Positions 51,804-59,323 of a DNA stretch of 64,000 bases are shown here, piece after piece. The DNA comes from Anaeromyxobacteraceae bacterium (GTDB lineage: Bacteria; Myxococcota; Myxococcia; Myxococcales; Anaeromyxobacteraceae). The position numbers and the translations under genes are program-made. Location: the NCBI GenBank assembly GCA_047602405.1, contig JASGHJ010000001.1, positions 2,112,001-2,176,000 of the forward strand. Reading direction: 5' to 3'. The notes below the pieces were generated by a model, which did no database searches, was not told where the DNA came from, and worked only from the letters and a program-made list of their open reading frames with translations. Each line of letters opens with the position of its first letter. Within the stretch, counting starts at the first letter, position 1.

Positions 51804-54823
<3,020 letters not shown>

Positions 54824-54831
54824 GGAGGGGA

Positions 54832-54921
54832 CGGGGGCGGAGACGGAGGCGGAGGCGGAATCGGAGACGGATTCGGAGACGGATTCGGAGACGGATTCGG
54901 AGGCGGATTCGGAGTCGGACT
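54832..54921 (+). repeat. 15 tandem CGG(A/G)NN hexamers
   Basis: CGGAGA/CGGATT/CGGAGG units read directly. Confidence 0.9.
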
Positions 54922-54937
54922 GCTCGTGATCCCCGCC

Positions 54938-55160
54938 GGGGGAGAGGGACTCGGAGTGAATGGGCCCGACGGCGGGTGAGGGGGCCGTCACCCGTCTGAA
55001 GTGGCCGTCACCGGCCTCCTTCCGGCTGTGGGCTGCGTCTGCTTTGGACGGCGCACGTTTCCTGCCGGGCCACCGCTCGCGTTCGCTCGGTCCCGGGGCC
55101 CGTCATGAAACCTGCGCCGGAAGGGGGCAGACGCAGCCCACAGCCGAAAGGAGCCTTCCG
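54938..55160 (+). ncRNA. Candidate structured leader, copy 1 (138-nt hairpin at 55016-55153)
   Basis: 27-bp outer stem and 22-bp inner stem; close match to reverse complement of 55945-56168; transcription not shown. Confidence 0.6.
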
Positions 55161-55511
55161 ATGTCTTCCATCCCCTCCACCTTCGTCGCGTACGACGTCG
55201 CGCTCACCGTCATCGCCTCTCTCCGCGACCTTCGCGGCGCGCTCGCGCGGCGGGACGCGTCGCTCGCCGATCAGCTCTCCCGCGCGGCGTCGTCCATCCC
55301 GCTCAACCTCGCGGAGGGCAACCGCCGCGTGGGCAAGGATCGCCTTCACTCGTTCCGCATCGCCGCCGGCAGCGCGGACGAGGTCCGGGCGGCGCTCCAC
55401 GTGGCGCTCGCGTGGGGCTACGTCTCCTCCGCCGACGCGGAGCCTGCCCTCCGCGCCTGCGATCGCCTCCTCGGCATGCTCTGGCGCCTCACGGCGCCGC
55501 GGGCGGCGTAG
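55161..55511 (+). CDS. Four-helix bundle protein (23S rRNA IVP / TIGR02436-like), copy 1
   Basis: LADQLSRAASSIPLNLAEG...FRIAAGSADEV...GY family motif; GAAAGGAG RBS. Confidence 0.9.
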   Translation: MSSIPSTFVAYDVALTVIASLRDLRGALARRDASLADQLSRAASSIPLNLAEGNRRVGKDRLHSFRIAAGSADEVRAALHVALAWGYVSSADAEPALRACDRLLGMLWRLTAPRAA

Positions 55512-55518
55512 GCGCCTC

Positions 55519-55547
55519 CCGGGCGGGGCCGGCGTGGCCCCGCCCGG
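55519..55547. terminator. Hairpin between convergent genes, possibly a bidirectional terminator
   Basis: CCGGGCGGGGCC-GGCGT-GGCCCCGCCCGG perfect 12-bp stem; no U tract. Confidence 0.5.
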
Positions 55548-55554
55548 CGACGCA

Positions 55555-55944
55555 TCACCGCGTCAGCCCGCGGAGCAGCCGCTGCACGCGATCCGCGGGC
55601 GCGAGCGCCGGCTGCACGGCCTCGCGGGCCAGGTACCCGAGCGCTTCTGCGACGTCGAGGCACGCCTGGACCTCGGCGGCCGACCCGAGCGCGACGCGGA
55701 AGAGGTGCGGGCGGTCCTTCCCGACGCGGCGGTTGCCCTCGGCGACGTTCAGCGGAACGGAGGTGACCGCACGGCGGAGCTGGTCTGCGAGCGAGGGATC
55801 GTGGCGGGCGACGAGCGGGATGACGGAACGCACGGCTCTCGCGAGCTGGATGGCGACCGCGTAGGCGTGGAAGGTGGGGGTGGGGGAGGTGGTACGGGGG
55901 CTGGGGGAGGCGGTACGGGGGGTGGGGAAGGTGGGGGAAGACAT
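55555..55944 (-). CDS. Four-helix bundle protein (23S rRNA IVP / TIGR02436-like), copy 2
   Basis: LADQLRRAVTSVPLNVAEG...FRVALGSAAEV...GY; GAAAGGA RBS. Confidence 0.9.
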   Translation of the reverse strand: MSSPTFPTPRTASPSPRTTSPTPTFHAYAVAIQLARAVRSVIPLVARHDPSLADQLRRAVTSVPLNVAEGNRRVGKDRPHLFRVALGSAAEVQACLDVAEALGYLAREAVQPALAPADRVQRLLRGLTR

Positions 55945-56168
55945 TGGGAAGGTTCCTTTCGGTTGTGGGCTGCGTCTGCCCCATCCCCGGCGCAGGTTTC
56001 ATGACGGGCCTCCGGCCCGAGTGACGGCGAGCGGAGGCCCGGCAGGAAACGTGCGTCGTCCCAAGCAGACGCAGCCCACAGCCGAAAGGAGGCCAGTGAC
56101 GGCCCCCTCGCCCGATTGACGGTCCCCTCCCCCACCGGCGGGCCATTCACTCCAAGTCCCTATCCCCC
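55945..56168 (-). ncRNA. Candidate structured leader, copy 2 (hairpin at 55954-56090)
   Basis: Inverted homologue of 54938-55160 with the same stems and internal mismatches. Confidence 0.6.
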
Positions 56169-56247
56169 GATATGGGCCCGACAGGGAGAGGGTTCACCTA
56201 CAGTCCAGGTCCCGACTCCCGACTCCCGGTCCCCGTCCCGTTCCGGT

Positions 56248-56452
56248 CCCGGTCCCGATTCCCGGTCCCGACTCCCGGTCCCGACTCCCGGTCCCGACTC
56301 CCGGTCCCGACTCCCGGTCCCGACTCCCGGTCCCGACTCCCGGTCCCGACTCCCGGTCCCGACTCCCGGTCCCGACTCCCGGTCCCGACTCCCGGTCCCG
56401 ACTCCCGGTCCCGACTCCCGGTCCCGACTCCCGGTCCCGACTCCCGGTCCCG
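56248..56452. repeat. 13-bp minisatellite (CCCGGTCCCGACT)n
   Basis: 14 perfect units 56261-56442, one variant unit before, a partial unit after; degenerate flanks 56208-56480. Confidence 0.95.
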
Positions 56453-56635
56453 TTCCGGCCCCGATCCCCGGCCCCGATTCCCAATCCCCCGCCGCGCTCC
56501 CAGGTCCCGCCTCCCGGTCCCGCCCCTCCCCCGCCCGCCCCCTCGCCCGGCATTTGCCCCTCCCTCTCCGGCCGTGGTACGCCACCCCCCTTCACACGGG
56601 TAGACACGCGGCTCCAACCCGCGGCCCGGCACGCC

Positions 56636-59323
56636 ATGCGCCTCCCTTCCGCTCGAGAACTGTCCGCGCTCGACGAGCTCGTGCTCGCTGCGCAGAAGCC
56701 CTCCCGTTACGTCGGCCTGGAGTTCGGGGCCGTGAAGAAGGACCTCGCGGACGCGCGCCTGCGCTTCGCGCTCGCCTTCCCCGACACGTACGAGGTCGGG
56801 ATGTCGAACCTCGGGTTCCGGCTCCTCTACCACCTGCTCAACGATCGCCCCGAGATCGCCTGCGAGCGGGTGTTCATGCCCTGGCCCGACCTCGAGGGGA
56901 TGCTGAAGGAGCGGAACCTCCGGCTCTTCAGCCTCGAGTCGCGCGCGCCGGTGAAGGGCTTCGACGTCCTCGGCCTGACCTTGCAGACCGAGCTCGCCTA
57001 CACGAGCGCGCTCGCGCTCCTCGATCTCGCCGGGATCCCGCTCCTCGCGCGGGAGCGCGGCGAGGACGATCCCATCGTGCTCGGCGGCGGCCCCTGCGCC
57101 TACAACCCCGAGCCGGTCGCCGACTTCTTCGACGCCTTCGCGGTCGGGGAGGGCGAGGAGGTCGCGCTCGAGATTGCCGACGTGGTGTCGTCGTCCGGCT
57201 TCCGGCGCGGGGGCAGCGGCGCCTCGCGCGCCGAGGTGCTCGAGCGGCTCGCGAAGGTGCCGGGTGTGTACGTGCCCGCGTTCTTCCGGCCGGTGTACGA
57301 CCCCACCACGAAGGTGCTCACCGCGATCGAGCCGCTCCGCCCCGGCTACGACAAGGTCGAGCGGCGGGTGATGCCGGACCTGAACGCGCTCCCGACCACC
57401 GCGTACACCCGGCCCATCGTGCCGTTCATGCAGACGATCCACGATCGCCTGCCCATCGAGATCCAGCGCGGCTGCACGCGCGGCTGCCGCTTCTGCCAGG
57501 TCGGGATGATCACCCGCCCGACCCGCCAGCGCGATCCGAAGGAGGTGCTGCGCCTCGCCGAGGTGGGGCTGAAGTCCTCCGGCTACGAGGAGGTCGGCCT
57601 CCTCTCGCTCTCCTCCGGTGACTACCAGCCGCTCAACGGGCTGCTCGACGACTTCCTCGCCCGCTGGGAGGGCGAGAAGATCGCGATGAGCCTGCCGTCG
57701 CTCCGCACCGAGACGATGAGCGACTCGCTCGCGAAGAAGATCGGCCGCATCCGCAAGACCGGCTTCACGCTCGCGCCGGAGGCGGCCACCGAGCGGATGC
57801 GCGCCGTCATCAACAAGGGGAACCGCGAGGAGGACCTCCTCAAGGCGGTCGCCTCGGTGTTCGGCAACGGCTGGTCGCTCCTCAAGCTCTACTTCATGAT
57901 CGGGCTCCCCGAGGAGCGCGACGAGGACGTCGTCGCCATCGCCGAGCTGGCGCGGAAGTGCCTGGCCGAGGCGCGCCGCGCCTTGCCGAAGGGGCAGGGC
58001 TCCGCCGCGATCCACCTCGGCGCGTCCACCTTCGTGCCGAAGCCGTTCACCCCGTTCCAGTGGGAGCCCACGCTGCGGCCGGAGGAGACCCGCCGGCGCC
58101 AGGGGCTCATCACCGCCGCGCTCGGGGGCCGCAACGGCGCCATCTCGTTCAAGCCGCACGACTCGCGCCAGTCCTCCATCGAGGCCGCGCTCGCGCTCGG
58201 AGACCGCCGGGTCGGCACCGCCGTGCTCGCCGCCTACCGCGCGGGCCAGCGGCTCGACGGCTGGACCGAGTGGTTCGACGAGCGGCGCTGGATCGACGCG
58301 TTCGCCGCGTGCGAGCGCGAGCACGGCGTCGGGCTCGACGGGTTCGCCCACCGCCGCCGCCGGCTCGACGAGGTCCTGCCCTGGGACCGCATCGACTGCG
58401 GCGTGACCAAGAAGTACCTCGCGAAGGGGCTCGCGGCCGCGCGCAACATGGCGGAGCTCACCGACTGCGTCATCGCCCCGTGCTCGGTCTGCGGCGCGTG
58501 CGACTACGACGTCGTGAAGAACCGGACCTACGACGCGAAGGACTACGTGCCGGAACCGGAGCTGCCGCCGCGCCCGCCGCCGCCCGAGATCCGCACCCAC
58601 GTCCGCCTCCGCTACACGAAGCTCGGCCGGCTCGTCGCGCTCAGCCACCTCGAGACCATCCACACCCTCGTGCGGGCCATCCGCCGGGCCGGGCTGCCGG
58701 TCGCGTTCTCGCAGGGCTACCACCCGAAGCCGAAGGTCAGCTTCGGGCCCGCACTGCCCGTCGGGGTCGAGTCGGTCTGCGAGTACCTCGACCTCGAGCT
58801 CGTCGGCCTCGCCGACGCCCGGGACGTGGGCGACCGCCTCGGCCGGGAGCTGCCGGAGGGACTCCGGGTGCTCGAGGCCTCGGAGGTCGACCCCCGGGAG
58901 CCGTCGGTGAACGAGGCCCAGCGGGCGGTCCACTACCGGGTCGAATTCCCGGCTGATATCGCGGAGGACCGCCTCCGGGGGCAGGTCGAGGCCTTCCTCG
59001 CGGCCGAGCGAGCGGTCGTGACCCGCGAGAAGCCCCCCCAGGGGCCCCGGGCCCGGCGCGATAAGGTCGCGGCCGCCCCGGTGAAGAGGATAGACTTGAA
59101 GGAAATCGTGACCCACCTGGCCGTCGAAGGCCCGGGGGTGGTCGCGTTCAGCTTGCGGGCGGATCCCTCGGGAAGCGCGAAGCCAGCCGAGGTGCTGGCA
59201 GCGATCTTCGGCGACGGGTCCACCCCACGGGGAGTGAAGGTTCTGAAGGAAGGCGTCAGCTTCGCGAGGACGGGAACCGGCCGCTCGGGCCAGCCCCGCG
59301 CCCCTCGCTACCTCGACGCCTGA
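56636..59323 (+). CDS. B12-binding radical SAM protein (TIGR03960-like) fused to radical SAM-linked DUF2344 domain
   Basis: KPSRY, FPDTYEVGMSNLG, RGCTRGCRFCQ, LPWD, then LSHLE...FSQGYHPKPKVSFGPALPVG. Confidence 0.92.
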   Translation: MRLPSARELSALDELVLAAQKPSRYVGLEFGAVKKDLADARLRFALAFPDTYEVGMSNLGFRLLYHLLNDRPEIACERVFMPWPDLEGMLKERNLRLFSLESRAPVKGFDVLGLTLQTELAYTSALALLDLAGIPLLARERGEDDPIVLGGGPCAYNPEPVADFFDAFAVGEGEEVALEIADVVSSSGFRRGGSGASRAEVLERLAKVPGVYVPAFFRPVYDPTTKVLTAIEPLRPGYDKVERRVMPDLNALPTTAYTRPIVPFMQTIHDRLPIEIQRGCTRGCRFCQVGMITRPTRQRDPKEVLRLAEVGLKSSGYEEVGLLSLSSGDYQPLNGLLDDFLARWEGEKIAMSLPSLRTETMSDSLAKKIGRIRKTGFTLAPEAATERMRAVINKGNREEDLLKAVASVFGNGWSLLKLYFMIGLPEERDEDVVAIAELARKCLAEARRALPKGQGSAAIHLGASTFVPKPFTPFQWEPTLRPEETRRRQGLITAALGGRNGAISFKPHDSRQSSIEAALALGDRRVGTAVLAAYRAGQRLDGWTEWFDERRWIDAFAACEREHGVGLDGFAHRRRRLDEVLPWDRIDCGVTKKYLAKGLAAARNMAELTDCVIAPCSVCGACDYDVVKNRTYDAKDYVPEPELPPRPPPPEIRTHVRLRYTKLGRLVALSHLETIHTLVRAIRRAGLPVAFSQGYHPKPKVSFGPALPVGVESVCEYLDLELVGLADARDVGDRLGRELPEGLRVLEASEVDPREPSVNEAQRAVHYRVEFPADIAEDRLRGQVEAFLAAERAVVTREKPPQGPRARRDKVAAAPVKRIDLKEIVTHLAVEGPGVVAFSLRADPSGSAKPAEVLAAIFGDGSTPRGVKVLKEGVSFARTGTGRSGQPRAPRYLDA

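Follow-up and report, generated by a model that had tools for sequence, protein, structure and literature searches.

The interval between the acyP and radical SAM genes of this Anaeromyxobacteraceae genome holds a pair of convergent genes, A and B, as one insertion of about 1.72 kb. As judged from sequence comparison, this A+B pair is very probably a mobile cassette that lacks a transposase. Each gene is preceded by a long hairpin, which is probably the fold of the gene's template DNA strand instead of an RNA leader. We lean, by a little, towards regarding this hairpin as a fold-back sigma54 promoter, which forms on the single-stranded template DNA and is aimed at the gene. All positions given without a genome label refer to the window, i.e. 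the stretch of 64,000 nucleotides that was analysed (assembly GCA_047602405.1, contig JASGHJ010000001.1, positions 2,112,001 to 2,176,000).

The insertion extends from position 54824 to 56543 (about 1720 nt, no strand assigned, right end approximate). An earlier note on this DNA had described a portable module, and relatives indeed possess an empty site: From the acyP stop codon to the ATG of the radical SAM gene, 93 nt were counted in genome G010 compared to 1812 nt in this genome, and none of the five relatives examined has a four-helix-bundle gene between the two genes. The hexamer arrays are part of the insertion, because tandem arrays are absent from the empty site of G010. The left arm is a G-rich hexamer array with a unit of 6/12 nt (54838..54919, + strand); the right arm is a tandem array with a 13-nt unit, which is G-rich on the - strand (56203..56482, - strand). 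Such variable G-rich/C-rich arrays form the ends of the insertion, which are not sharply conserved. No target-site duplication was seen in the comparison with the empty site of G010, a genome that differs from this one by about 5-10%. The context of the cassette is chromosomal, with housekeeping genes; a 53-nt REP-like palindrome with well over 100 genomic matches lies in frame within the DNA ligase gene (53907-53960).

Both halves had been ascribed the same layout, and arrays, hairpins, a GGGGGA block and two CCGTCA boxes were found on each side. The block itself spans positions 54938-54963 and 56143-56168; together with the boxes it forms a small repeat at 54938..55010 (+ strand) and, as a second copy, at 56097..56168 (- strand). 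This part of the layout is not constant: Of 73 leaders, 5 contain the GGGGGA/CCGTCA block, which also stands alone at three other sites of this genome, and at its place other cassette copies bear different small repeats. It is a separate passenger repeat and no constant component of the module. Between both stop codons there is a short GC-rich hairpin without a T tract (55519..55547, no strand assigned), and a similar one exists in the remaining three cassette copies of this genome.

Gene A (55161..55511, + strand, 116 aa) and gene B (55555..55944, - strand, 129 aa) encode four-helix-bundle proteins of the family TIGR02436/PF05635. The assignment made in the earlier note is confirmed by profile scores of 62.6 and 67.6 bits for TIGR02436 (cut-off 24) and of 61.3 and 68 bits for PF05635 (cut-off 33.8); likewise, the two proteins share 57 of 105 residues (54%), which is the identity value estimated before. 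In the structure model of the gene A protein, four helices are predicted with a pLDDT of 96, and the model superposes on XCC0516 (2GSC) and BT_0352 (2RLD) with TM values of 0.84-0.88. XCC0516 is reportedly a five-bundle assembly, as the title of its paper has it. Unlike the 23S rRNA intervening sequence, the cassette is located outside rRNA; no rRNA match was found at the locus, as had been stated. With Avd (4DWL) the model shares the fold at a TM value of 0.81, with 10% identity and an E-value of 0.15. Avd is the four-helix-bundle protein of diversity-generating retroelements, according to the accessible text of PMC10053308. In contrast to these retroelements, the cassettes have no reverse transcriptase within 90 kb; all eight RVT_1 matches are at least 90 kb away, in agreement with the earlier claim. 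Among the repeats of positions 54000-57500, no TR/VR pair with adenine-specific differences was found. This genome also contains seven near-identical reverse transcriptase genes (G000:C1:439597, 557811, 2073934; C2:769786, 1212582, 1713502, 1787451); they lie in a repeat of more than 1.5 kb and likely belong to a recently active group II intron.

The copies of the cassette carry the argument for mobility. This genome possesses nine genes of the family: Eight form four A+B pairs, and the ninth is solo and differs in its upstream region. The ORFs of all eight paired genes are intact, and all eight hairpins precede four-helix-bundle genes. Leader copies thus exist beyond the locus studied here, and they are linked to this gene family as had been supposed. 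A decayed remnant was noticed at C2:349227. Two cassette sites are common to G010 and this genome, two sites of this genome (the acyP site and the Y site) are without a cassette in G010, and two G010 sites are here either empty or occupied by only a short hexamer palindrome. The cassette carries no transposase, which had also been claimed; in the genome, no integron integrase exceeds the cut-off, and matches to Y1 transposases are weak and occur as well in G015, a genome without a four-helix match. Dispersed copies, empty sites and the covariation described below support the postulated selected, portable and non-autonomous module, with the correction that the unit is the whole pair including its arrays and not each half. 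A total of 34 strong clusters of hexamer arrays were found; nine have two arms, always in the order G-rich then C-rich, and five of these nine hold four-helix genes. A preference for GTAG as target was considered and rejected: GTAG ends 1319 of 4279 crudely called genes compared to 4 of 9 array-adjacent ones (p=0.47).

The A genes of the four sites in this genome are 96-97% identical, whereas their identity to the G010 copies at the same two sites is 84% and 80%, with flanks at 89.8-96.1%. At the DNA level, A genes share 68-73% identity with B genes, compared to 85-94% for their hairpins; for the two leaders of the window the value is 86.6% over 224 nt, within the range of 85-90% given in the earlier note. 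Hairpins cluster by genome and genes by type. From this we infer that the copies have been homogenised within the genome by gene conversion. Therefore, the identity of the A and B leaders is by itself no proof of selection; the high identity, which had been taken as a sign of selection, is due in part to conversion, and it is the covariation of the fold which speaks for selection. A directional mutation halo in the neighbouring host genes was also considered and rejected (43 versus 37 changes within 150 nt, six flanks, p=0.58). In L031 and L035, compared with G000:C2:465.6k and 2603.5k, the flanks of two G010 cassettes are swapped, which is due either to recombination between copies or to misassembly.

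Matches at E<=0.001 were found in 24 of 37 genomes of the genus (13 have none), and at 1e-25 in 20 of 301 genomes of the phylum. The cassette was found neither in 72,556 plasmids nor in 50,697 phages nor in viral contigs, and four DNA sequencing runs contained only small pieces of relatives, none of which spans the insertion site. Solo and paired genes were counted in a set of 271 genes, which comprises those of all fetched loci after de-duplication. In family 1, to which A and B belong (n=143), 76 genes are solo, 24 lie at a contig edge, 39 are convergent and 4 are divergent; in the sister family 2, 56 of 58 genes are convergent. Adjacent genes form 55 pairs, of which 53 converge and 2 diverge, with no same-strand pair among them. 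Same-strand duplicates get lost by recombination, which could alone explain the absence of tandem pairs.

The earlier note had seen a hairpin of about 138 nt in front of each gene. Hairpin A (55016..55153) has a length of 138 nt and hairpin B (55954..56090) of 137 nt; gene A is on the + strand and its hairpin is predicted to fold on the - (template) strand, gene B is on the - strand and its hairpin is predicted to fold on the + (template) strand. The folding z-scores are -6.9 for A and -5.5 for B, and none of 200 shuffled sequences was as stable. The leader lies, as supposed, outside the Rfam families: No match reached a gathering score, and the best one (42 bits versus 168) was to a plant microRNA model. 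The covariation was analysed in alignment A3, which consists of 37 de-duplicated leaders with loops of 28-40 nt plus the two copies of the window, out of 73. In these 39 leaders, whose counts overstate independence because the leaders are related, both partners have changed in 15 of 36 pairs, compared to 8.7 in shuffled and 5-10 in slid alignments. Three alignment columns are unpaired in 39, 36 and 39 of the 39 leaders. These patterns indicate that the predicted hairpin is a selected fold with a fixed core.

Which of the two strands folds was assessed on 71 of the 73 leaders, i.e. leaving out rows L178 and L240. With DNA parameters, the template strand is more stable in all 71 cores and in 70 of 71 whole hairpins; with RNA parameters, this antisense strand is still more stable in 66 cores and 54 whole hairpins. 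Isolated G.T wobbles of the outer stem number 38 on the template and 7 on the sense strand (22:6 outside the Shine-Dalgarno sequence, SD); drift from AT to GC on the arm under less constraint may have inflated this bias. At the conserved mismatches, the sense strand has C.U, C.A and C.C, the template strand G.A, G.T and G.G. In family 2, C(GNA)G loops occur on the template strand of 35 of 44 leaders and in 9 of 11 genomes, each of the four bases being represented in the middle of the loop; none of the 44 has such a loop on the sense strand. As a control for these loops, hairpins downstream of host genes have no strand preference (58 versus 62 of 247). d(GNA) loops with a closing C:G pair are very stable in DNA, according to the available parts of PMC3201870 and PMC13037366. 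The earlier idea of leader and protein as an RNA-protein pair is unlikely: The strand evidence favours a fold of template DNA, and nothing found here supports the pair.

The core of the hairpin consists of two inverted 14-mers, back to back, with the -24/-12 geometry of sigma54. Sigma54 promoters have TGGCAC and TGC boxes 5-7 nt apart, as stated in the accessible part of PMC12316311. The outward copy is GGCGCG-N4-GTGC, the gene-facing copy GTCACG-N4-CTGC. We counted strings in the published sigma54 table (PMC12316311, supplement 2), which comprises 720 promoters by its text: GGCACG occurs 173 times, GGCATG 80, GGCGCG 17, GGCAGG 14 and GTCATG 0 times, and GTCACG once, outside the element. In leader A, the outward-facing motif (55053..55066, - strand) has an intact GG, and its hexamer occurs 14 times in this table; the gene-facing motif (55102..55115, + strand) is broken at -24 (GT), and its hexamer is found 0 times. 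In leader B, the gene-facing motif (55992..56005, - strand) is likewise broken at -24, and the outward-facing one is located at 56041..56054 (+ strand). The spacing of the boxes fits sigma54 on both arms, and the GG of the outward arm is missing from the gene-facing arm in 72 of the 73 family-1 leaders. Of these 73, 72 have a mismatch between the arms at -24, 62 at -22 and 66 at -15; positions -8..-3 are paired in only 22-34%, i.e. form a bubble, whereas +6..+14 are paired in 96-99%. Part of the core table is dictated by the search pattern; when the pattern was made symmetric, the picture was the same. For 30 distinct cores, the variable letters -19..-16 pair in 99 of 120 cases, compared to a mean of 50 and a maximum of 67 after shuffling. 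Transcription is predicted to start (+1) at 55127, where the outer 3' arm begins, about 20 nt ahead of the SD. The genome contains rpoN. No -35/-10 consensus was seen by eye in the 39 leaders of A3, and the comparison of family-1 leaders revealed no conserved block upstream of the hairpin. The core is missing in 50 of the 121 family-1 genes with a full upstream region.

Three solo homologues lack the hairpin and have a gene-facing GG motif. At G000:C1:1972491-1972811 and in L036, a solo four-helix gene without hairpin lies between inverted hexamer arrays, and its gene-facing GG-type sigma54 motif ends 13-14 nt before the ATG; there is no SD. This gene is likely leaderless and possibly represents the ancestral layout. 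In addition, a gene-less family of long facing hairpins has the same split core (e.g. G000:C2:123729-124409, L280, and C1:1564615-1564878), with GG on the complement of the 5' arm, GT or GG on the 3' arm and the -12 GC on the inner arm only. It faces inward like the gene pair and has 18 matches in this genome and occurs in 3 of 37 genomes of the genus. At G000:C2:278077-279617, such a pair encloses an open frame of about 305 codons and lower GC content, which lies downstream of the right hairpin, on the strand that this hairpin would template; a capture of cargo is possible.

If the hairpin is a fold-back promoter, the following course of events can be envisaged. In duplex DNA, the gene-facing motif would be dead due to the T at -24, the intact motif would point away from the gene, and in read-through RNA the ribosome site would be hidden in the hairpin, so the genes would be silent. 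DNA uptake, transfer, a stalled fork or cruciform extrusion might expose a single strand. Once the template strand is exposed, the outward copy would take the role of non-template strand in a promoter that faces the gene and whose bubble is already open; transcription would begin at the foot of the 3' arm, and the RNA would be without the anti-SD. As the genes are on opposite strands, either exposed strand would express one of them, which the prevalence of convergent pairs would suit. The Avd-like protein might then act on the single-stranded cassette as a nucleic-acid chaperone, assisting its annealing and recombination, which is a guess from the modeled fold, and the hexamer arrays might serve as loose homology in these steps. 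With respect to DNA uptake, the ComEC competence domain has matches in four of five genomes; it is whole in three relatives and in two pieces here (G000:C2:1251168-1252014).

The closest known counterparts of such a promoter are the Frpo/ssi promoters of F, ColIb-P9 and pESBL (classes 1-3), in which -35/-10 boxes are restored on the plasmid strand that is transferred, according to the accessible parts of PMC12672017, PMC11541004 and PMC9849209. As in these systems, a long imperfect stem-loop would restore a promoter on single-stranded DNA and be inactive as duplex, the latter being a prediction for the cassette; a conserved stem-loop on the strand that templates the next gene is also common to both, here predicted from sequence. 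The available texts place Frpo/ssi, with -35/-10 boxes, in the leading regions of conjugative plasmids, whereas the cassette has -24/-12 elements, is chromosomal and is paired on both strands. Several observations count against the promoter reading. Wild-type sigma54 needs its activator even at pre-opened bubbles, and a bypass took a mutant sigma factor or a destroyed fork junction, as described in the available parts of PMC7057263 and PMC4551910. The 50 core-less genes, the prevalence of solo genes in family 1 and the absence from plasmids, phages and viral contigs point in the same direction. Family 2 has a separate strong hairpin, located downstream of the predicted +1, in which both the SD and the start codon are covered; it would block translation of the promoter's own transcript. 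Inverted pairs possibly just outlast tandem ones.

Three other explanations have to be weighed against the fold-back promoter. The hairpin may silence at the level of RNA: It would have arisen when an ancestral sigma54 promoter was duplicated in inverted orientation together with the ribosome site, and would mask the SD in read-through mRNA; the stem might be opened by a small RNA made from the outward promoter, or the protein might bind to its leader. IS10 and IS50 hide their SD in this way in folded read-through mRNA. The SD lies in the 3' arm of each hairpin (55146..55152, + strand, for gene A) and is paired in the predicted fold; the masking stem outlives the loss of the core, being near-perfect in the family-1 leaders L170, L198, L203 and L253, where the promoter core is gone, and family 2 has its dedicated SD hairpin. 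Moreover, covariation alone cannot tell RNA from DNA. However, even when RNA parameters are used, the antisense strand gives the better fold in 66 of 71 cores, the mismatches of the sense strand are C.U, C.A and C.C in contrast to G.A, G.T and G.G on the other strand, C(GNA)G loops occur exclusively on the template strand, and masking needs no fixed bubble just before +1. We consequently regard RNA-level silencing as unlikely. A rather improbable alternative is a recombination substrate resembling attC or REP, whose mismatches would be read by a HUH or tyrosine recombinase acting in trans or by the four-helix protein, the sigma54 likeness being only ancestral. The strand-specific fold with its fixed mismatches and variable loop, the gene-less repeat family with the same GG/GT split core, and the weak Y1 matches would suit it, but attC boxes and an integron integrase over the cut-off are missing and the Y1 matches extend to G015, which has no four-helix match. 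In addition, the hairpins are located 190-450 nt inside the insertion ends, and spacing, SD distance and the intact motifs of solo genes suit a promoter. The remaining possibility, a domesticated host sensor, whose promoter would turn on a useful stress protein when single-stranded DNA or cruciforms build up while copies turn over by incidental repeat recombination, agrees with the intact ORFs of the paired genes and the two sites common to G010. It is at odds with the patchy spread in genus and phylum and with decayed copies and strain-specific sites, and we consider it very improbable.

Compared with other elements of this kind, the cassette resembles MITEs, MICs and REPINs, which are non-autonomous mobile cassettes: It is multi-copy, intergenic and palindromic, has no enzyme of its own and leaves empty sites. 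It differs from them in that no sharp conserved ends or target duplication were seen, in its flanking variable hexamer arrays and in its copies homogenised by conversion. Unlike an integron attC cassette, it has no RYYYAAC ... GTTRRRY boxes and no IntI over the cut-off. A description of this hairpin leader and paired layout was not found in the literature that could be searched, which mostly excludes subscription papers and bioRxiv supplements; the accessible part of PMC4679880 makes no mention of four-helix proteins.

A spread of the cassette that is aided by its protein is possible, though less likely than not. Equally tentative is a more far-reaching proposal, namely a selfish element without an enzyme of its own that would sense when it is single-stranded: The bubble would fire wild-type sigma54 without an activator, the Avd-like protein would promote annealing and recombination, and the gene-less family of hairpin pairs would use the same switch, even for captured cargo. 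If the fold-back promoter is real, single-strand promoters would be extended from sigma70 plasmids to sigma54 chromosomes, and the cassette would offer a natural test of sigma54 bypass by DNA structure alone. It would also hint at how a gene without a transposase spreads, and the widespread family TIGR02436/PF05635 would gain a defined condition of expression and a testable role.
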